From a virus (taxonomy: Duplodnaviria > Heunggongvirae > Uroviricota > Caudoviricetes), in IMG/VR virus record IMGVR_UViG_648276657_000002, positions 1 to 8,652 of that record: a stretch of 8,652 bases of DNA. The stretch is one strand, 5' to 3'. Positions 1-8,596 of the stretch are shown piece after piece (the first letter of the stretch is position 1; the number at the start of each line of letters is the position of its first letter). The position numbers and the translations under genes were made by a program. The notes below the pieces were generated by a model. That model was not told the origin of the DNA. It was given only the letters and a program-made list of their open reading frames with translations, and ran no database searches.

Positions 1-30
1 AAAAAAAAAAAAACCCCCGGGGGGGGGGGG
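1..30. repeat. Homopolymer block A13-C5-G12 at the window edge; likely an assembly, tailing or engineered-junction artifact rather than native phage sequence
   Basis: Direct reading: 13 A, 5 C and 12 G in succession. On the minus strand this reads C12-G5-T13 directly after the stop of the 56..286 gene. Confidence 0.5.
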
Positions 31-55
31 TTCTACAGAGGGTTGTAGCTGGATA

Positions 56-440: not shown

Positions 441-1025
441 ATGAAAAGTATCCAGGACGTCCGCAGGCAAAATCTCAACGACTTGATCGACCGTGAATTC
501 AATGGTGTTCAGACGCGGATGGCAGAAAAACTTGGAACTCAGGCAAATCTGGTAAACCGCTGGGCTCTTGGCAAAAAGGTTATCGGCGACCAGGTTGCGC
601 GAAAAATTGAAGCTGCCGCCAATAAACCCCGTAACTGGCTTGATATCGATCGCTCGCTTTCTCAGGAGGGGTTTCAGCCTGTCGGCCCAAGCGACATTGG
701 TCAGCTGGCGGCTCACAACCTGGAACGCTGGATGAGCGAAAGCCGCGACCTTTCAACTCAGGGAAAACTTCACCGCGCATCCGGCGTCGCCCAGGTGACA
801 ATCAGCCGCCTGTTAAACAATGAGGTCAGCGTTTCCATTTCCACCCTGGAGAATGTTGCATCCGCATTCGGGCGTCACGGCTATGAATTACTGATTCACC
901 CGCACGACCCTGCGACTATCAACTATGACCGCTCGCGCTACGCATTGTTACCCGAAACAGAGAAGGCAAAGATCGAAAGTTACATTGAATTTGTCATCAG
1001 CCAGAACGAAAAAAACAAACAATAA
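441..1025 (+). CDS. Prophage repressor candidate (CI analogue): tandem XRE-type HTH protein with no recognisable S24/LexA-like peptidase domain
   Basis: 194-aa ORF. N-terminal HTH region (QTRMAEKLGTQANLVNRWALGKK ... ARKIEAAANKPRNWLD) is typical of phage repressor HTH_XRE domains, and a second HTH-like segment follows (GVAQVTISRLLNNEVSVSISTLENVASAFG). It is flanked by operator palindromes and followed by an intrinsic terminator, matching the lambda cI position. I see no peptidase-type motif. Confidence 0.6.
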   Translation: MKSIQDVRRQNLNDLIDREFNGVQTRMAEKLGTQANLVNRWALGKKVIGDQVARKIEAAANKPRNWLDIDRSLSQEGFQPVGPSDIGQLAAHNLERWMSESRDLSTQGKLHRASGVAQVTISRLLNNEVSVSISTLENVASAFGRHGYELLIHPHDPATINYDRSRYALLPETEKAKIESYIEFVISQNEKNKQ

Positions 1026-1045: not shown

Positions 1046-1071
1046 AAGCCGCCTTCTGGCGGCTTTTTTAT
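1046..1071 (+). terminator. Rho-independent terminator after the repressor gene: 8-bp stem AAGCCGCC/GGCGGCTT, loop TTCT, then a T-run
   Basis: Hairpin plus T6 tract read directly, about 20 nt past the 441..1025 stop codon. Confidence 0.75.
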
Positions 1072-1082
1072 TGCCTGTGCGA

Positions 1083-1159
1083 TTACCTAATGGGTAATTT
1101 TTTTAACTCATATCTATTGACATCAAACCAAATACGCATAATTATTACCTCAACGGTAA
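1083..1159 (+). promoter_or_regulatory. Early-operon promoter (pL analogue) with two operator palindromes (OL analogue): TTACCtaatgGGTAA at 1083..1097, -35 TTGACA at 1117..1122, weak -10 near 1140..1145, TTACCtcaacGGTAA at 1145..1159
   Basis: Perfect -35 consensus hexamer; the operator motif matches the OR sites exactly; one site overlaps the -10 region, consistent with repression of the early operon. Confidence 0.5.
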
Positions 1160-1333: not shown

Positions 1334-1633
1334 ATGAACGTTAATCAGCAGAAAAATCTTCAAAAAATCATGCTGGCATTCGACAAGGACTACCGCCTGT
1401 CAGAACAGCTATATGACCGACAAGTTGAACTGATTGAGAGCATCCGACTTCATCAACTGTCCTCAACTTTCGACGTTGTAACAGGCAAAGGCGTTCGTCA
1501 GGAAGTGCTGGAAGCTGCTAAAGACAGCCCTGAGTTCGAAGAACTGATGGATGCCTACCGGCGCGAGGCAATGGCGATTATCGCCCGCTGGGATCTGGCG
1601 GATCAGCTTGATGGGCAGAGGGACGCGGCATGA
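1334..1633 (+). CDS. Hypothetical phage early protein (99 aa), translationally coupled to the downstream exonuclease
   Basis: The track ORF 1319..1633 is trimmed to the ATG at 1334, which has a GGGAGGG Shine-Dalgarno 7 nt upstream. Its stop TGA (1631..1633) overlaps the exonuclease ATG (1630). No family recognised. Confidence 0.55.
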   Translation: MNVNQQKNLQKIMLAFDKDYRLSEQLYDRQVELIESIRLHQLSSTFDVVTGKGVRQEVLEAAKDSPEFEELMDAYRREAMAIIARWDLADQLDGQRDAA

Positions 1634-2529
1634 TGCGGAACGCTGGAATCATGGATAGAACAAAATACATCGGAGGAAGCGATGTTGCAGGGATTCTTGG
1701 AATTAGCCCATGGCGCACCCCGCTTGAGGTTTATCTGGATAAGGTCCAGCCACGTGTCAAACCAGTAGACCCAAGCAAGCAGAAAGTTTTCACGCGTGGC
1801 CAGCGTATGGAGCCATACGTAATAGACCTGCTTTCTGAGGAAACAGGGATGGAAATCGTTCATCGCGGAAACCGCTATATCCACCGTGATTACGATTTTA
1901 TTGCAGCTGAGATCGATGCAGAAGCAGCGTCAGGCGAGAACATTGAGATCAAAACAGTTAGTCCGTTCAAAGCCAAAGAATGGGGAGAAATCCAGACAGA
2001 TGCAATTCCTGTGCATTACACGGCCCAGGCCATGCACGGGTTGATGGTTACAAACAAACAGGTATGCGTTTTCGGTGTGCTTATCGGTGGCGACGACTTC
2101 CGAATCTATCGGGTTGAGCGTGATGAAGAAACTATCCAGGCGATCTTAGAAAAAGAAATCGCTTTCTGGGACCGAGTGAAAAATCTTAACCCGCCGGAAG
2201 CTACCAGCGTAAGCGATGTATCGCTGATGTTTGAGAAAGATGCCGGGACAAGTATCGAGGTTGACGGAAAGGCACTCGCACTATTCAACGATCTACGAGA
2301 CATGAAGTCACGCAGAAAATCACTGGAAGAAGAAATAGCTATATCAGAAGAGAAGCTGAAGATGTACATGCAAGAGCACTCAGTCCTGACCCTGGACGGA
2401 AAGCCGCTCTGCACATGGAAATCTCAGATCAGCAACAGATTCGACCAGAAGCTATTCCAGTCAGTACACCCTGAGTTATTCGAAAAATTCAAAACAACAA
2501 CGACACAACGCGTCTTCAGAATGAAGTAA
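1630..2529 (+). CDS. YqaJ-type viral recombinase exonuclease (lambda Exo-like PD-(D/E)XK alkaline exonuclease), partner of RecT
   Basis: 299-aa ORF with the N-terminal YIGGSDVAGILGISPWRTPLEVY segment typical of YqaJ-family exonucleases; sits immediately upstream of recT. The start could instead be the ATG at 1633 or 1651. Confidence 0.8.
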   Translation: MMRNAGIMDRTKYIGGSDVAGILGISPWRTPLEVYLDKVQPRVKPVDPSKQKVFTRGQRMEPYVIDLLSEETGMEIVHRGNRYIHRDYDFIAAEIDAEAASGENIEIKTVSPFKAKEWGEIQTDAIPVHYTAQAMHGLMVTNKQVCVFGVLIGGDDFRIYRVERDEETIQAILEKEIAFWDRVKNLNPPEATSVSDVSLMFEKDAGTSIEVDGKALALFNDLRDMKSRRKSLEEEIAISEEKLKMYMQEHSVLTLDGKPLCTWKSQISNRFDQKLFQSVHPELFEKFKTTTTQRVFRMK

Positions 2530-2538
2530 GGAGAAAAA

Positions 2539-3561
2539 ATGTCTATCAATGCACTTAAGGCAGCGGCTACCGGTAACCAAGTTGCACATCATAATGAGAA
2601 ACCAACAACTCTGGCCGGACTTCTGGCAGACCCAAAAATAAAAGCCCAGATGGCTTTGGCACTTCCAAAGCACATGACAGCAGACCGTCTGGCGCGCATA
2701 GCAACCACAGAGATCCGAAAGGTTCCAAAACTTGCATCATGCGACCAAGCCAGCTTCCTGGGGGCAATTATGCAATGTGCCCAATTGGGTCTTGAACCAG
2801 GTGGAGCTCTTGGACACGCTTACCTGATACCGTTCGACAAACGCCAGAAAGTAAATGGAAGATGGGAAACCGTATCTACAGAAGCACAGCTGATTATCGG
2901 CTATCGCGGAATGATTGACCTTGCCCGCCGCTCTGGGCAGATCCTGAGTATCTCGGCTCGTACCGTACATACAAACGACAAATTCAGCTACTCATACGGC
3001 CTGGAAGAAACGCTCGAGCATTTACCTTGCGAAACAGGTGACCGCGGAGAATTAACGCACGTTTACGCCGTTGCACGACTGAAAGATGGCGGAGTCCAAT
3101 TTGAAGTTATGAGCCGGGCAGACGTTGAGAAAGTTCGTGCACTGAGCAAAGCCGGTAGCAGTGGCCCATGGGTTGATCACTTCGATGAGATGGCTAAAAA
3201 AACAGTAATTCGCCGACTGTTCAAATATCTTCCTGTTTCTATTGAGATGCAGAAGGCTGTTGTTATGGATGAGCGCGCTGAAGCTGGACTTAGCCAAGAT
3301 AACGCAGCTGTTATCACTGGTGAATATTCCGTAGTTGACGATGAGCGTCAACACCTATCGCCAATTTCAGATTCAGAACGAGAAGAAGCTCGAGAATATA
3401 TCATCGCGATACTTAATAGCCTGGATCCATCTGCTGAAGATGCAAAAACGATGTTCAAGCGCGCTGAAAATGAAATTAACACCATGGCTGAAAAGCTCGG
3501 TGATGAATATCACCAAAAATTCATGATGACGCTTAACGATATGCGTCCAGAATTCGAGTAA
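2539..3561 (+). CDS. recT: RecT-family single-strand annealing recombinase
   Basis: 340-aa ORF with long stretches matching E. coli Rac RecT as I recall it (LPKHMTADRLARIATTEIRKVP, LGLEPGGALGHAYLIPF, LIIGYRGMIDLARRSGQI, HVYAVARLKDGGVQFEVM, GPWVDHFDEMAKKTVIRRLFKYLPVSIEMQKAV). Strong AAGGAG RBS upstream. Confidence 0.92.
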   Translation: MSINALKAAATGNQVAHHNEKPTTLAGLLADPKIKAQMALALPKHMTADRLARIATTEIRKVPKLASCDQASFLGAIMQCAQLGLEPGGALGHAYLIPFDKRQKVNGRWETVSTEAQLIIGYRGMIDLARRSGQILSISARTVHTNDKFSYSYGLEETLEHLPCETGDRGELTHVYAVARLKDGGVQFEVMSRADVEKVRALSKAGSSGPWVDHFDEMAKKTVIRRLFKYLPVSIEMQKAVVMDERAEAGLSQDNAAVITGEYSVVDDERQHLSPISDSEREEAREYIIAILNSLDPSAEDAKTMFKRAENEINTMAEKLGDEYHQKFMMTLNDMRPEFE

Positions 3562-3569
3562 CCACCACC

Positions 3570-3588
3570 GCGGCGCCACGCGCGCCGC
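3570..3588 (+). other. GC-only hairpin (7-bp stem GCGGCGC/GCGCCGC, 5-nt loop) in the recT-alpA intergenic region, with no following T-tract
   Basis: Read directly; it lacks the U-run of a canonical intrinsic terminator. Confidence 0.4.
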
Positions 3589-3610
3589 ACTGCAACCAAG
3601 AGAGGTATTT

Positions 3611-3859
3611 ATGAAAGGTGCATTAGGTAAGAAGGAACTCCTGGCGGTGGTGCCACTGTCATGGAGCACTATCGACCGCATGGAGCGCACAGGGGAATTT
3701 CCTAAGCGCTGGTATATCACTGACAAACGCTGCGCATGGAACCGTGATGAAGTTGAGCGTTGGCTTGATGAACGTCAGGCAGCAAGCCCGGCAGAGTTCC
3801 AGGGTAAAAAGCCTCCTGTTCAGCAACGTGTATATCGTCCTGTGAGCAACGCTGCATGA
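3611..3859 (+). CDS. AlpA-family phage regulatory protein (excisionase-like winged HTH)
   Basis: 82-aa ORF; KKELLAVVPLSWSTIDRMERTGEFPKRWYITDKRCAWNRDEVERWLDER matches the AlpA/Xis-type pattern (compare LPEV..LTGLSRSTIYRL...G.FP.P..LG.R...W...EV..W); AGAGAGG RBS upstream. Confidence 0.7.
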   Translation: MKGALGKKELLAVVPLSWSTIDRMERTGEFPKRWYITDKRCAWNRDEVERWLDERQAASPAEFQGKKPPVQQRVYRPVSNAA

Positions 3860-4016
3860 GTGTGCTGCTAAGGCACTGGAGCAAATGGTCAGGATGGTAC
3901 TTATTCCTGGCCTCTGTTTCAGCATGGCTTTATCTGCTGGCATTAATTTTCAGAGAGGGTTGGATTAAGTGAGAAAGTTAAGCCGACTTGAAAAATATCA
4001 CATGAACAAGGTTTCA

Positions 4017-4268
4017 ATGCGCAGTCCGTCAAAGATTGTCGCCGTTACTCCTGCGGCGATAGAGATCGAAAAACGCGCGATTGAAAGAGAGAAAAAAGGG
4101 CAGTTCCGCATTGCCGCCCACCTTTGGCTTCAGTGTATGGATGTTGCTTCTGGTGATGTTGAGCGTGCAAGGATCGCGGTTCGCAGGGACCAATGTATCA
4201 CAAAAGGTAACGGCCTTCGCCGTGGCGACTATAGCGGTATAGGATGTTGCGGGGTAGTTTATGACTAA
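4017..4268 (+). CDS. PerC/ANR-like small transcriptional regulator candidate; the track ORF starts at GTG 3969, and the true start is uncertain (ATG 4002 or 4017)
   Basis: The segment EKKGQFRIAAHLWLQCMDVASGDVERARIAVRRDQC resembles the PerC/Pch pattern (G.WRRAA.RW.DV ... RR..C), recalled from memory and not searched. An AAGG motif lies 7 nt before ATG 4017. Confidence 0.45.
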   Translation: MRSPSKIVAVTPAAIEIEKRAIEREKKGQFRIAAHLWLQCMDVASGDVERARIAVRRDQCITKGNGLRRGDYSGIGCCGVVYD

Positions 4269-4911
4269 GAAATACACACTAATCTATGCAGATCCACCCT
4301 GGGTATACCGGGACAAAGCCGCAGATGGTAATCGCGGTGCCGGTTTTAAATATCCGGTTATGAGTGTGATGGATATCTGCCGCCTTCCTGTGTGGGATTT
4401 GGCCGATGAAAACTGTCTGTTGGCAATGTGGTGGGTGCCAACACAACCACTCGAAGCGCTAAAAGTTGTTGAAGCCTGGGGATTCCGTCTGATGACCATG
4501 AAGGGCTTCACGTGGATAAAATGTGGTAGTCGACAACCAGATAAACTGGTTATGGGTATGGGACACATGACTCGCGCCAATAGTGAAGATTGCCTGTTTG
4601 CAGTAAAGGGAAAACTACCTCCGCGCATTAATGCAGGGATCGTTCAGTCATTTACCGCACCGCGGCTTGAGCATTCAAGAAAACCAGATGTCGTTCGTGA
4701 AAAACTTGTGCAATTGTTAGGCGATGTTTCTCGCATTGAACTGTTCGCCCGCCAGTCGTCTCATGGCTTCGATGTTTGGGGTAATCAGTGCAAAGACCCG
4801 GCGGTGCAACTACACCCAGGATACGCGTTGGATATTGGCGGATTAACAAATGCATTCAGCAATTCTCCGCTTTCACCAACAGACAACCAAGGCCGGGAGC
4901 GTGCAGCATGA
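4261..4911 (+). CDS. MT-A70-family DNA N6-adenine methyltransferase (orphan phage methyltransferase)
   Basis: 216-aa ORF with the DPPW catalytic motif in context IYADPPWVY near the N-terminus. The start overlaps the upstream stop by 8 nt, and the stop TGA overlaps the next ATG. Confidence 0.8.
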
Positions 4912-5567
4912 ACCTATATCAACGCATCAATGGCGCTGACTGGTGCAATATCTTCGTCGTCGGCGATCTGCATGGGTGCTACACGCTGCTGATGAACGAA
5001 CTCGACAAAGTTTCATTCGACCCGGCGCGCGATTTGCTTATTTCCGTTGGTGACCTTGTTGACCGCGGCGCTGAAAACGTCGAATGCCTAGATTTGATTA
5101 CTATGCCGTGGTTCCGAGCTGTTCGTGGCAACCATGAGCAGATGATGCTGGATGCACTGGTCAACGGCGGAAATTTCGGACATTGGATGTCAAACGGCGG
5201 TGGATGGTGGCACCAACTTGATTCTGAGCAGGATGTGCAACTCAAATACCTTCTGCCAAAGATTACCAACCTCCCGATGATTATCGAACTGGTTACCGGC
5301 AATAAGAAGGTCGTCATCTGCCACGCAGACTACCCGCACAACGAATACGCATTCAATAAGCCAGTACCAGAAGAAATGGTGATATGGAATCGTGAGCGGG
5401 TTAGCGACGCGCAGGACGGTATTGTCTCGGAGATAACCGGTGCCGATTTGTTCATCTTCGGTCATACGCCAGCACATCACCCACTGGTGTATGCAAACCA
5501 GATGTACATCGACACAGGGGCAGTGTTCTGCGGAAATCTGACGCTTACCAAAGTCCAAGAAAGATAG
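4908..5567 (+). CDS. Lambda-type Ser/Thr protein phosphatase (calcineurin-like metallophosphatase, PrpA/PrpB / lambda ORF221 family)
   Basis: Metallophosphatase motifs GDLHG, GDLVDRG and GNHE, with an N-terminus ([12 protein letters not shown]) resembling E. coli PrpA. Start placed at the ATG at 4908 (ATGA overlap with the methyltransferase stop) rather than the track start at 4788. Confidence 0.85.
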
Positions 5568-5569
5568 AA

Positions 5570-6742
5570 TTATTTATTACTGTCTTCCATCCACTTCTCA
5601 AACTTCGACGGGGAGAACGGAATCAGATCCGTATGCTCCCCGTTAATCCAGGAATCAATCATATCGGCCCACTGCTGCAACATGTAGGCGCGCTGTCTGG
5701 CGTATTCCGCTTTGTTATATACGGCGCGCACACCTTTCTGCTCATGTGCCAGAGCCTTTTCAATCCAGTCTGAAGGATAACCAGCCTCATGCAACAACGT
5801 ACTGGCTGTACGGCGCATATCGTGTACGGTGAAGTCCTGAATATGCTCACCATCTTCATTTATTATTTTCACCGTTCTGTCGATCAGAGAGTTCAGCGCG
5901 GCATTAGATAATGGCTTCCGGAAGTTGTAACGACCAGGAACCAGATATTCACTTCCACCAGCGCACATCTGCAACCCGACCAATATATCCTGTGCCTGTT
6001 TAGGCAGGTAAATAACGTGCGCCCGGCTTCCCTTCATGCGGTCTGAAGGAATTGTCCATGTCCATTTTTTAAAATCTATTTCGTCCCACGTTGCATTGGT
6101 GAATTCGCCTTTACGAACCATAGTGATAAGCACCAGCTTTAAAGCCATTTTCATAGTACCCATAGCACCAATGGCATCCAGCGTGCGGAAGAACAGGCCA
6201 ATTTCTTCTGGTGTCAGTGTTCGCTCTCGTGGTTTAAATATGGCGATAGACGAAGGTTTAATGTCAGCCGCAGGATTAAATAAACCATGACCACGGTCAT
6301 TGGCGTGACGGTATACGCTGCTGATGATCTCCCTGGCCTGTACTGCTGTTGCACGGCCACCGCGTTCGACAATCCGGTCACACAAATCACGAACCATCGA
6401 TGTGGTAATTTCAGCCATCATTTTGTTGCCAAGAACCGGAAGTATGTCACGGTCGATCACCGCCTGTTTCATTGCGCGGGTACTGTCAGCCAGGATGACG
6501 TGTTTCATATAACTGTCGGTATGTACCGCAAACGTCTCGGCACCACGAATCTTTTTGATACCGTCACGTTTAGCCGCGGCCGGTGACTGGCCTGCTTTAA
6601 GCAGTTTCTTTGCAGCAATCAGTTCTTCCCGCGCTTCTGCCAGGCTGATACCGTCACGCCCATACTGCCCTATTACCAGTGTTTCGCGGCGACCGTTGAT
6701 ACGGTAGTCATAGCGAAACGAGACCGTGCCTGACGTAAGCAC
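5570..6742 (-). CDS. P4-like tyrosine integrase; the reading frame continues upstream to 6805 and is interrupted by an in-frame TAA (6806..6808) inside the conserved N-terminal motif, so it may be a pseudogene or an N-terminally truncated product
   Basis: 390-aa ORF from GTG. Arm-binding region (GLYVAVLTSGTVSFRYDYRINGRRETLVIGQYGRDGISLAEARE) and catalytic region (HDMRRTASTLL ... VYNKAEY) match tyrosine recombinases. Upstream in frame: GTG-L-T-D-T-K-stop-K-T-L-K-P-Q-D-K-L-Y-K-V-S-D-R-D-G-L-Y, the canonical LTDT..K..KP.DK.Y start of P4-like integrases. Confidence 0.85.
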   Translation of the reverse strand: MLTSGTVSFRYDYRINGRRETLVIGQYGRDGISLAEAREELIAAKKLLKAGQSPAAAKRDGIKKIRGAETFAVHTDSYMKHVILADSTRAMKQAVIDRDILPVLGNKMMAEITTSMVRDLCDRIVERGGRATAVQAREIISSVYRHANDRGHGLFNPAADIKPSSIAIFKPRERTLTPEEIGLFFRTLDAIGAMGTMKMALKLVLITMVRKGEFTNATWDEIDFKKWTWTIPSDRMKGSRAHVIYLPKQAQDILVGLQMCAGGSEYLVPGRYNFRKPLSNAALNSLIDRTVKIINEDGEHIQDFTVHDMRRTASTLLHEAGYPSDWIEKALAHEQKGVRAVYNKAEYARQRAYMLQQWADMIDSWINGEHTDLIPFSPSKFEKWMEDSNK

Positions 6743-6853
6743 AGCTACATACAGCCCGTCACGATCGGAGACCTTGTACAGTTTGTCCTGCGGCTTGAGG
6801 GTTTTTTATTTTGTATCGGTAAGCACAATTCACCCGTATAGAAACCATTTTCA

Positions 6854-6891
6854 TGACGGTATGAGAGTATACCTTTAAGGTAATACCGTCA
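6854..6891. promoter_or_regulatory. 9-bp perfect inverted repeat (TGACGGTAT ... ATACCGTCA, 20-bp spacer) enclosing operator-like half-sites (ATACCtttaaGGTAA at 6869..6883); candidate int regulatory or att-associated site between the integrase and guaA
   Basis: Read directly; lies in the int-guaA intergenic region where the prophage-chromosome junction is expected. Confidence 0.35.
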
Positions 6892-6940
6892 CCTGTACCG
6901 CCGAAAAATATGGTGTAGAGTGAATAGAAATGAATACATA

Positions 6941-6970
6941 AAAACAAAAACCCTCTGTAAAAACAGAGGG
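6941..6970 (-). terminator. Rho-independent terminator of guaA (stem CCCTCTG/CAGAGGG, then a T-rich run on the minus strand)
   Basis: Minus-strand read: CCCTCTG-TTTTTA-CAGAGGG followed by TTTTTGTTTT, about 50 nt downstream of the guaA stop. Confidence 0.75.
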
Positions 6971-7018
6971 TTAAATTAGTATCTGAATAGGAATGAGTTG
7001 CTATGAGTTAGCTGTTAA

Positions 7019-8596
7019 TCATTCCCACTCAATAGTCGCTGGCGGCTTGCCGCTGATGTCATACACCACGCGGGAAATACCGTTCACTTCATTGATAATA
7101 CGGTTGGAAACGCGGCCGAGGAAGTCGTACGGCAGATGTGCCCAGTGTGCGGTCATAAAGTCGATGGTTTCGACAGCACGCAGAGAGACAACCCAGTCAT
7201 ACTTACGACCATCGCCCATTACGCCAACGGAACGTACTGGCAGGAAGACGGTGAACGCCTGGCTGACTTTGTCGTACAGGTCCGCTTTACGCAGTTCTTC
7301 AATGAAGATGGCGTCAGCACGGCGCAGCAGGTCACAATACTCTTTCTTCACTTCTCCCAGAACACGAACGCCAAGGCCTGGTCCCGGGAACGGGTGACGG
7401 TACAACATGTCATACGGTAGGCCCAGCTCCAGACCAATCTTACGCACTTCGTCTTTGAACAGCTCTTTCAGCGGTTCAACCAGGCCCATCTTCATCTCTT
7501 TCGGCAGGCCACCCACGTTGTGGTGAGATTTGATGACGTGTGCTTTACCGGTTGCAGAAGCAGCAGATTCGATAACGTCAGGGTAGATGGTGCCCTGCGC
7601 CAGCCACTTCACGTCTTCCAGTTTCAGCGCTTCTTCATCGAATACTTCAACGAAAACGCGACCGATAATTTTACGTTTTGCTTCCGGATCGTTTTCGCCA
7701 GCCAGCGCTGACAAGAAGCGATCTTCTGCCGGTACGTGAACAATGTTCAGACCAAAGTGATCGCCAAACATATCCAGAACCTGCTCTGCTTCGTTGAGAC
7801 GCAGCAGGCCGTTGTCGACGAATACGCAAGTCAGGTTTTTACCGATAGCGCGGTGCAACAGCATTGCGGTAACGGAGGAATCCACGCCACCAGAGAGGCC
7901 GAGGATGACTTTATCGTCGCCCACTTGCTCGCGGATGCGGGCTACAGCGTCGTCGATAATTTTCGCTGGCGTCCACAGGGCTTCACACTGGCAGATATCA
8001 CGCACAAAACGCTCCAGCATGCGCATACCCTGGCGGGTGTGAGTCACTTCCGGGTGGAACTGTACGCCATAGAAGCGTTTTTCTTCGTTGGCCATGATGG
8101 CAAACGGGCAGCTTTCGGTGCTGGCTACGGTGACGAAGTCGGACGGGATAGCGGTAACTTTATCGCCGTGGCTCATCCAGACGTCCAGCAGCGGTTTACC
8201 ATCTGCGGTCAGCGCATCTTCGATACCGCGAACCAGTGCGCTGTCGTTTACGACTTCAACCTGCGCGTAGCCAAATTCACGTTCGTTAGAGGCTTCAACG
8301 TGACCGCCCAACTGCATTGCCATGGTCTGCATGCCATAGCAAACGCCGAATACCGGTACGCCTGCTTCAAAGACATACTGCGGCGCACGCGGGCTGTTTT
8401 CTTCGGTGGTGCTTTCCGGGCCGCCGGAAAGAATAATGCCGCTTGGATTGAAGTCACGAATTTGTGCTTCTGTCACATCCCACGCCCACAGTTCGCAGTA
8501 AACACCCAGCTCACGCACGCGGCGCGCAACTAGTTGAGTGTACTGAGAACCGAAGTCCAGAATGAGGATGCGATGCTTATGAATGTTTTCCGTCAT
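7019..8596 (-). CDS. guaA: GMP synthase (glutamine-hydrolysing), full length
   Basis: 525-aa ORF beginning [40 protein letters not shown] and ending ATIEWE, recognised as enterobacterial GuaA; includes the class I glutamine amidotransferase domain and the SGGVDSS ATP-pyrophosphatase motif. Confidence 0.97.

Follow-up and report, generated by a model that had tools for sequence, protein, structure and literature searches.

An MT-A70 methyltransferase gene and a lambda-type phosphatase cassette beside the integrase gene of a phiV10/epsilon15-like prophage: probably ordinary mosaicism rather than a two-gene system

The genes considered here have counterparts in several described phages. In phiV10, the genes for an AlpA protein, a 38-aa protein, a PerC protein and a methyltransferase are followed by a cargo slot and a convergent integrase gene (int), in the same order as in the window, i.e. 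the whole stretch of 8,652 nucleotides analysed here, which comes from the IMG/VR record IMGVR_UViG_648276657_000002. The phiV10 genes p33-p32 encode the methyltransferase and a DUF1382 protein, the DUF1382 gene overlapping the methyltransferase stop by ATGA, and the phiV10 backbone is 97-98% identical to the window at the nucleotide level. However, the slot encodes a 64-aa DUF1382 protein in phiV10 and a 219-aa phosphatase in the window, and the two also differ in the last few int codons and in the recombination module. Besides, the phage vB_EcoP_PAS61 (OQ921333) and the guaA prophage of E. coli APEC O1 display an arrangement of methyltransferase, phosphatase and int genes identical to that of the window, with 98.4-98.5% nucleotide identity, and nothing substantive in the methyltransferase/phosphatase pair sets them apart from it. 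This arrangement is therefore not new, since it is already annotated in these two genomes, although the PAS61 paper makes no mention of the two genes and a text search of the phiV10 literature returned nothing relevant. The differences lie elsewhere: int is intact (418 aa) in PAS61 and APEC O1, whereas that of the window contains an early in-frame stop (TAA at codon 7, visible in the translation and when the gene is aligned with its intact counterparts from APEC O1 and phiV10), and the recombination module of PAS61 is another one, with window homology absent between 1636 and 3558 and two RecT-labelled CDSs annotated there.

Regarding the phosphatase, lambda NinI (orf221; PDB 1G5B) has the same length as the window protein and shares with it all PPP metal-binding and catalytic motifs. 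In lambda, ninI belongs to the nin region, which separates the replication genes from Q, and lies downstream of ninE, whereas the window gene ends the early-left operon beside int, downstream of an MT-A70 methyltransferase gene, in a podovirus-type Uetakevirus prophage. In lambdoid nin regions, ninI also begins with an ATGA on the stop of the preceding gene, as the window phosphatase gene does. To our knowledge, no biological role has been established for NinI-type phosphatases since the 1990s. The lambda ninI gene is non-essential (PMC10695390), and the literature searched for the role of lambda NinI and for counter-defence by phage phosphatases yielded only non-essentiality, in lambda and P1, and unrelated metallophosphoesterase cases.

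Regarding the methyltransferase, the closest studied relative is gp5 of phage PA8 (M.EcoPA8orf6770P), with 82% identity over residues 1-187 of the window protein. PA8 gp5 was reported as a 16S rRNA methyltransferase acting with PNB-2, the product of the upstream gene; its specificity requires this co-transcribed product, and its C-terminal tail was linked to the association with PNB-2 (PMC10810198). M.EcoGV was found to methylate DNA at GATC upon overexpression (PMC6602927). A stationary-phase promoter has also been reported for PA8. Both enzymes, from Stx phages, are orphans encoded near the int end of a prophage, like the window methyltransferase, and in PA8 a DUF1382 gene then comes after the methyltransferase gene, as in phiV10. 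Nevertheless, the C-terminal approximately 29 residues differ between PA8 gp5 and the window methyltransferase, the alignment ending at residue 187, and the upstream gene encodes PNB-2 in PA8 but a PerC-like protein in the window. Because of these C-terminal and upstream-gene differences, neither the 16S rRNA specificity (PMC10810198) nor the GATC specificity (PMC6602927) is confidently transferable to the window enzyme. A link to M.EcoGII, a prophage methyltransferase without sequence specificity, was also considered and rejected, as that enzyme belongs to a different, 349-aa family and its paper mentions neither MT-A70 nor M.EcoGV.

Synteny with phiV10, high nucleotide identity and integration at guaA together identify the window as the early-left arm of a prophage of the phiV10/epsilon15-like (Uetakevirus) type, which is integrated at the 3' end of guaA (Table 1). 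On either side of the slot, the nucleotide sequence is 97-98% identical to phiV10 and PAS61, and the blastn homology to these two phages stops at 7033, the guaA ORF occupying 7019-8596 on the minus strand. Against phiV10, blastn matches 3558-4913 and 5587-7033 and leaves the interval between them without match. Homology to phiV10 is likewise absent between 1633 and 3558, a loss by which the recombination module is recognised as a second mosaic replacement in the window.

Table 1. Coordinates, strand and supporting evidence of the features of the prophage arm
Feature	Position	Strand	Evidence or remark
HTH protein resembling a prophage repressor; homologous to phiV10 p40	441..1025	+	Pfam HTH_3 E=1.2e-9
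Terminator-like hairpin 3' of the repressor gene	1046..1065	+	8-bp stem, 6 GC pairs, T run
Candidate early-left operon promoter, TTGACA-17-AATTAT	1117..1145	+	10/12 consensus; consensus match only
YqaJ-type exonuclease (recombination cassette 1630..3561)	1630..2529	+	Pfam YqaJ E=2.7e-23
RecT (recombination cassette 1630..3561)	2539..3561	+	Pfam RecT E=4.4e-57
AlpA-family excisionase/regulator	3611..3859	+	Pfam Phage_AlpA; PHROG 66, excisionase
38-aa membrane protein	3856..3972	+	PHROG 17484 E=4.7e-27; 4-nt overlap with each neighbour
PerC-family small regulator	3969..4268	+	Pfam PerC E=6e-7; PHROG 868 E=5.7e-62
Putative orphan MT-A70 (beta-class) N6-adenine methyltransferase, prophage backbone gene	4261..4911	+	216 aa; PF05063
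Left cassette boundary: ATGA start/stop overlap in the short shared string CAGCATGA	4904..4913	+	Homology break
Lambda-type (NinI) PPP-family Ser/Thr phosphatase, slot cargo gene	4908..5567	+	219 aa; PF00149
Segment replacing the phiV10 DUF1382 gene: phosphatase cassette and last int codons	4914..5586		blastn against phiV10
P4-type tyrosine integrase	5570..6826	-	Pfam Phage_integrase, Phage_int_M, Arm-DNA-bind_3; convergent with the operon
Prophage/chromosome junction (att core)	7019..7033	no strand	Overlaps the guaA 3' end

The promoter-like site at 1117-1145 is probably where one compact operon begins; it is the only such site on the plus strand from the repressor gene to 5567, in a scan whose promoter-like hits were fewer than those obtained with shuffled sequence. 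This operon would comprise, in that order, the recombination genes and those of the AlpA-type excisionase, the 38-aa membrane protein, the PerC-like regulator and the methyltransferase. At its end, against the convergent int, would lie a variable cargo slot, occupied here by a NinI-type phosphatase cassette. Upstream of it, the homologue of the HTH protein is labelled as putative repressor in the phiV10 and PAS61 records, and the phiV10 record has a rho-independent terminator at the place equivalent to the hairpin. Since no promoter-like or terminator-like element was found on the plus strand between 1145 and 5567, nothing there indicates an independently expressed moron. The PerC-like ORF may start at the GTG at 3969 or at a later ATG.

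The genes of this operon are tightly packed, start/stop overlaps being present at five of its seven junctions. The PerC-like ORF, with its stop at 4266-4268, runs 8 nt into the methyltransferase gene, which starts with the ATG at 4261, the phosphatase ATG (4908-4910) overlaps the methyltransferase TGA (4909-4911) in the form of an ATGA, and the end of int at 5570 falls 2 nt past the phosphatase stop. The sequence-only reading had pointed out both start overlaps, which are confirmed, and had seen in them the sign of a co-expressed unit. Co-expression of the methyltransferase and the phosphatase is indeed plausible, as distal genes of one operon, but the overlap is generic and does not single out the pair. 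Among the best 80 matches to the NinI-like phosphatase, every gene starts with an ATGA, and the upstream ORF, whatever its family, ends on this TGA in 73 cases, while the downstream ORF begins by the same 4-nt overlap in 29 of the best 80 species-level methyltransferase loci (for each scan, the best 80 matches were retained with 4-kb flanks). The ATGA between methyltransferase and phosphatase is thus no chance feature, yet it is not specific to these two genes.

The identities that had been proposed for the two genes proved right. The methyltransferase matches PF05063 over the full length of the profile (positions 1-172 out of 172, E=3.8e-22), carries the catalytic DPPW motif at residues 11-14, which is nearly invariant across 20 homologues, and aligns to ciliate MTA1 and to METTL3 catalytic domains; its region is 97.7% identical to phiV10 at the nucleotide level up to 4913. 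With PADLOC, it is the sole match of the locus, as a generic Type II methyltransferase (MTase_II, E=8.5e-77). No endonuclease is adjacent that would make it part of a Type II restriction-modification system, its neighbours being the PerC-like regulator and the phosphatase, and the orphan status assigned to it earlier is upheld by the lack of a nuclease neighbour in Pfam and PADLOC searches. The activity predicted for the protein is SAM-dependent N6-adenine methylation, and its lineage is that of M.EcoGV / M.EcoPA8orf6770P. As for the anti-restriction role by default attributed to such an orphan, as the sequence-only reading had noted, it is weakened by the report of PA8 gp5 as a 16S rRNA methyltransferase (PMC10810198).

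In the phosphatase, the Metallophos domain PF00149 spans residues 15-188 (E=1e-15), PHROG 246 (NinI-like) is matched with E=1.1e-107, and the alignment with lambda PP (PDB 1G5B) is gapless, with 67% identity over 217 aa (E=1.5e-100). The PPP signature motifs and the distal His ligands, namely GDLHG (19-23), GDLVDRG (48-54), GNHE (74-77), H139 of ICHAD and H186 of GHTP, are identical to those of 1G5B. The catalytic motifs are intact in both the methyltransferase and the phosphatase, and their respective identities of 82% and 67% to studied or solved relatives settle both family assignments. Like lambda PP, the enzyme would dephosphorylate phosphoproteins in a Mn2+-dependent manner, presumably as a dispensable accessory function.

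The boundaries of the phosphatase cassette can be placed by homology. The homology to phiV10 ends at 4913 and that to the ninE/ninI genes of HK225 begins at 4904, and a three-way alignment reveals that CAGCATGA is common to all of them at this left boundary. The accessory slot next to int, another proposal of the sequence-only reading, is confirmed by the variation observed among relatives: the distance between the methyltransferase and integrase genes varies between -115 and 1694 bp, and at least 10 unrelated cargo families are found there, the start of most of them overlapping the methyltransferase stop by 4 nt. In the 545 complete E. coli genomes that carry the methyltransferase, the DUF1382 allele is found in 371 (68%) and the phosphatase allele in 143 (26%); at 63 near-identical IMG/VR loci, the slot is occupied by DUF1382 (45), the phosphatase (16) or an AntA-like antirepressor (2). 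Moreover, in a second, diverged backbone (L068), the cassette is 94-100% identical to that of the window whereas identity falls to about 65-80% in the methyltransferase and integrase genes, with about 70% for the former, which means that the cassette moves without the methyltransferase. In the same line, the Klebsiella Uetakevirus BUCT711 has its phosphatase gene in the early-right operon and its methyltransferase gene beside int. Outside Uetakevirus-like prophages, no donor phage turned up with more than approximately 80% nucleotide identity to the cassette; its 78.5% identity to the ninI genes of HK225 and phi80 makes a lambdoid nin region its probable source. That the phosphatase allele is frequent, and that two diverged backbones have it in the same slot, may reflect either positional selection or plain homologous exchange.

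We consider, with a probability of roughly 85%, that the phosphatase is one of many interchangeable cargos, and that its position behind the methyltransferase results from ordinary phage mosaicism and not from a two-gene system. The cassette would have spread among related prophages by recombination at gene boundaries, the left exchange point being the start/stop junction in the shared CAGCATGA and the right one the 3' end of int. Throughout these operons, an ATGA overlap is the general gene joint, and it accompanies the phosphatase gene whichever gene precedes it. The two genes would therefore be transcribed together early after infection or induction, perhaps with translational coupling, yet their products would act independently of each other.

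One could go further and regard the slot as a hotspot at which effectors of host takeover or counter-defence replace one another, among which the phosphatase, the DUF1382 protein, the AntA-like protein and others; the phosphatase would, for instance, undo the phosphorylation through which Ser/Thr kinases of the host or of a prophage block infection. Such a view extends the explanation by interchangeable cargos without contradicting it, and it would fit the hypervariability of the slot, with its many small, phage-specific ORFs of unassigned function, the occurrence of NinI-like phosphatases in 1,448 phage records, including those of lytic T5-like and jumbo phages, and the precedent of kinase-phosphatase modules controlling lysogeny and defence, such as Pf KKP (PMC11341870). 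However, PADLOC returned no match for the phosphatase, the PerC-like, DUF1382 and AlpA proteins and ten slot cargos, save a marginal one to LmuB (E=0.009) that was disregarded, lambda NinI is dispensable with no anti-defence phenotype reported in the literature searched, and variable cargo near att sites is a general trait of temperate phages that does not imply counter-defence. We therefore hold this extension to be unlikely. Decidedly doubtful is the stricter proposal that the slot beside attP in Uetakevirus-like prophages is a dedicated exchange site for early host-manipulation or counter-defence effectors, the NinI-type phosphatase being one of them, in which case it would neutralise, for example, kinase-based immunity or host stress signalling.

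A second alternative leaves the phosphatase as a bystander and, by analogy with PA8, takes the upstream PerC-like protein as the true partner of the methyltransferase, directing its choice of an RNA or DNA target. The PerC-like gene does lie upstream of the methyltransferase gene throughout the phiV10/epsilon15-like loci, but several relatives have other genes between the two, and PerC proteins are known as transcriptional activators. The argument in favour of such a partnership is the close relationship of the enzyme with PA8 gp5, which depends on its upstream product (PMC10810198). Against it, the tail linked to PNB-2 is precisely the part that differs, and no similarity could be detected between PNB-2 and the PerC-like protein: the idea that the latter is a PNB-2 homologue was rejected as BLASTP gave no alignment, and a two-subunit enzyme of the PA8 type is not recognised here. 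A guiding role of the PerC-like protein is accordingly quite improbable.

The sequence-only reading had gone in another direction and proposed that the methyltransferase and the phosphatase form a dedicated, translationally coupled module with interdependent functions in host signalling or anti-defence, to be checked by the co-occurrence of the two families as neighbours across prophages. The result goes against the proposal in the very manner that it had itself named as its refutation. None of the best 80 species-level methyltransferase loci has the phosphatase gene adjacent, and their neighbours are diverse, with PerC, NinB, RusA and Q-like proteins among them. In the best 80 NinI-like loci, the phosphatase gene follows NinE in 65, and 78 are devoid of any MT-A70 gene within 4 kb; the other two both contain the same cassette in the same slot. 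No conserved adjacency of MT-A70 and NinI genes across unrelated genomes was thus observed, nor any joint inheritance or transfer of the two genes (L068; BUCT711). It is true that the ATGA overlap and the operon membership are real, and that the pair occurs in 143 complete E. coli genomes as well as in the second, diverged backbone (L068/L237). Yet the two genes are adjacent only within a single phage group, in one polymorphic slot where most E. coli carriers have DUF1382 instead, the cassette moves alone, BUCT711 keeps the two genes in separate operons and the overlap is of a generic kind, which makes a functional module of this sort very improbable. Finally, it is hardly credible that the phosphatase-fold protein serves as recombination directionality factor for int, by analogy with the metallophosphoesterase-like gp47 of mycobacteriophage Bxb1 (mentioned in PMC12287305) and in view of the immediate vicinity of its gene to int, as int is a tyrosine recombinase, an AlpA-type excisionase is already encoded, the phosphatase is missing from most relatives, the residues that a working phosphatase needs for catalysis are all conserved, and the same protein family occurs in nin regions far from int.

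Taken in itself, the locus has little discovery value, both protein families being well described and the exact arrangement publicly annotated. It nevertheless carries a caution for the reading of phage accessory genes: as their 4-nt start/stop overlaps are the seams of cassette exchange, such an overlap is no evidence of a functional pair. Likewise, since the methyltransferase is a close relative of a reported 16S rRNA methyltransferase, an anti-restriction label should not be assumed for it. As to the phosphatase, the natural phosphatase, DUF1382 and AntA-like alleles of near-identical prophages offer a ready contrast in which a phenotype of a lambda-type phosphatase could be sought.

At the sequence level, the two proteins encoded beside the integrase gene (int) are members of the families that the sequence-only reading had named, their activities at this locus being putative. 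The DPPW catalytic motif of the methyltransferase (residues 11-14) is almost invariant among 20 homologues, and the protein can be aligned by sequence with the ciliate DNA m6A methyltransferase MTA1 and with METTL3; it is termed orphan because no nuclease gene occupies the adjacent positions. The phosphatase aligns without gaps to lambda phosphatase (PDB 1G5B; E=1.5e-100, 67% identity) and keeps GDLHG, GDLVDRG, GNHE, ICHAD and GHTP, each catalytic residue of the lambda enzyme being also present. Its ATG (4908) overlaps the methyltransferase TGA (4909-4911), the methyltransferase ATG (4261) lies 8 nt inside the upstream PerC-like ORF, and such start/stop overlaps occur at five of the seven junctions between 1319 and 5567. 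Both identities and both overlaps thus stand in all details, as judged by Pfam, the 1G5B alignment and the ORF junctions.

Coordinates of the gene pair and of the neighbouring genes compared
Feature	Locus	Coordinates	Strand	Remarks
MT-A70 methyltransferase ORF	window	4261..4911	+	216 aa; Pfam MT-A70 across whole profile, E=3.8e-22
Lambda-type phosphatase ORF	window	4908..5567	+	219 aa; Pfam Metallophos
DUF1382 gene	L244 (phage PA8)	2056-2268		
DUF1382 gene	L002 (comparison locus)	4009-4203		
DUF1382 gene	L069-L071 (comparison loci)	3813-3998		
Upstream gene overlapping the methyltransferase	window	3969-4268		PerC-family
Gene compared as the upstream neighbour of the methyltransferase	L244 (phage PA8)	2851-3282		

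The proposal that the pair forms a two-gene functional module fared differently, since conserved adjacency is absent. With one genome per species and 4-kb flanks, an adjacent phosphatase was found at none of the 80 methyltransferase loci (best 80 of a larger set); a single Ewingella locus carries, in a lambdoid nin-type region some 900 bp further downstream, a phosphatase of 49% identity, and the neighbours varied, comprising PerC-like, NinB, RusA, replication, LexA-like and Q-like proteins. From the phosphatase side, an MT-A70 gene lay at most 4 kb away in only 2 of 80 IMG/VR loci, the best 80 of a larger set by similarity to NinI of phage HK225, and in both, cassette and slot are those of the window. 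Upstream of the phosphatase in these 80 loci were NinE (65), a NinB-like protein (4) or a 58-aa protein (2); an ATGA starts the phosphatase gene in all 80, the upstream ORF ending on that TGA in 73. The overlap is therefore a trait of the cassette and of phage operon architecture, not of the pair.

The slot itself, between the methyltransferase stop and int, is polymorphic. The window matches phiV10 at about 98% over 3558-4913 and 5587-7033, whereas 4914-5586 has no match; phiV10 carries instead a 64-aa DUF1382 gene after the methyltransferase, whose ATG likewise overlaps the methyltransferase TGA. In a three-way alignment of the window, phiV10 and HK225, the left breakpoint falls exactly at the methyltransferase/slot-gene junction: the window and phiV10 are common up to ...GTGCAGCATGAAC and divergent beyond, and CAGCATGA at the HK225 ninE/ninI junction is common to both. 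The right breakpoint lies within the final int codons. Among 5,426 complete E. coli genomes, 545 carry the methyltransferase, together with DUF1382 and int in 371 cases and with the phosphatase and int in 143. At 63 IMG/VR loci with a methyltransferase at least 95% identical, a set mostly from E. coli, the slot holds DUF1382 (45), the phosphatase (16) or an AntA-type antirepressor (2), and in more distant relatives the distance from methyltransferase stop to integrase stop ranges from -115 to 1694 bp.

Slot cargo comprises at least 10 unrelated families, including DUF7740, small coiled-coil proteins, several PHROGs of unknown function and an IS, and the start of most cargos overlaps the methyltransferase stop by 4 nt. 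That the slot gathers early host-manipulation or counter-defence effectors, the phosphatase among them, seems unlikely, and PADLOC matched none of the cargo proteins to a known defence family. DUF1382 is a more recurrent neighbour of the methyltransferase than the phosphatase, accompanying it both in Stx phage PA8 and in phiV10, which are unrelated phage types, and lying upstream of it in some epsilon15-like contigs.

As judged from sequence identity, the phosphatase cassette moves without the methyltransferase. Compared with the window, the locus L068 shows nucleotide identity of about 65-80% in the methyltransferase and integrase genes and of 94-100% in the interval matching window 4900-5600, the shifts being abrupt at gene boundaries. 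The Klebsiella Uetakevirus BUCT711 encodes a 67%-identical phosphatase in its early-right operon (L246 2092-2754), where the gene overlaps a small upstream ORF and abuts one for replication; that of the methyltransferase adjoins int in the early-left operon, and a 63-aa ORF fills the slot. Cassettes of one type thus occur in different operons within a single genus, and co-inheritance of the two genes does not hold, the L068 cassette having moved alone and the BUCT711 pair being split between operons. Of 50,697 phage records, 1,448 encode a NinI-like phosphatase, T5-like and jumbo phages among them.

On the + strand, a tightly packed ORF run extends to 5567, followed by the convergent int and then by guaA (-). 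Megablast against phage genomes matched the window at 97-98% identity to phiV10-like podoviruses (genus Uetakevirus) and found the window's arrangement only in PAS61 and BP9. Phage homology ends at 7033, within the final guaA codons (stop at 7019), so the window is the arm, on the int side, of a prophage inserted at the guaA 3' end. The prophage end provides the last ~15 nt of guaA (7019-7033) and a strong phage-derived terminator-like hairpin just downstream (6949-6972, -), and integration therefore leaves guaA intact with a predicted terminator of phage origin; int starts about 120 nt beyond this hairpin on the same strand. In a second mosaic replacement (1630-3561), the YqaJ-type exonuclease and RecT are encoded by separate genes; the phiV10 counterpart is one RecE/RecT fusion gene, and PAS61 has another module, unlike that of the window; homology to both phages is absent from ~1636 to 3558. 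The isolated phage PAS61 shares the methyltransferase/phosphatase/int arrangement, and the entire window matches an E. coli APEC O1 region at 98.5% identity, where the pair is annotated "MT-A70 family methyltransferase" and "serine/threonine protein phosphatase"; public records already contain the arrangement in annotated form. The window opens with the string A13 C5 G12 (1-30), which the otherwise 98.5% identical APEC O1 region lacks, its matches starting at window 22-32; the string has the look of an artefact of sequencing or of the contig end, and it also yields spurious terminator-like matches.

Regarding expression, promoters and terminators are predicted from consensus matches. The repressor-like gene (441..1025) is followed by a terminator-like hairpin (1046-1065), the sole + strand promoter-like site between that gene and 5567 lies at 1117-1145, and a consensus scan found no terminator-like site from there up to int. 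The pair would be transcribed last in a single early-left mRNA, produced upon infection or induction. Translation of the phosphatase may be coupled to that of the methyltransferase; it may also start independently, since a GGGAG string is located 8 nt before the phosphatase ATG. The phosphatase and integrase stops lie 2 nt apart (5567-5570) with no terminator between them, so early-left read-through would give antisense RNA across int, and this layout applies to the DUF1382 allele too. An in-frame TAA at int codon 7 (6806-6808, -), within an A-rich run (GTG CTT ACC GAT ACA AAA TAA AAA ACC, versus ...AAA TTA AAA AAC in APEC O1 and phiV10), is either a nonsense mutation grounding the prophage or a sequencing error; from the next in-frame start, GTG 6742, the product would lack 28 arm-binding domain residues.

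Concerning function, gp5 of phage PA8, 82% identical to the window methyltransferase over residues 1-187, is reported to bind the upstream gene product PNB-2 in a 1:1 complex, to require it for methylating 16S rRNA and to prefer that RNA as substrate (PMC10810198), and GATC specificity is listed for a near-identical enzyme, M.EcoGV (PMC6602927). However, the window has a PerC-like gene, unrelated to PNB-2, at the upstream position, and PA8 gp5 has a different C-terminal tail; the relatives' substrates are therefore not assignable to the window methyltransferase. Phage lambda can dispense with ninI (PMC10695390). The data give no hint that either enzyme depends on the other, and their arrangement is best described as ordinary cassette exchange in a variable slot beside attP.
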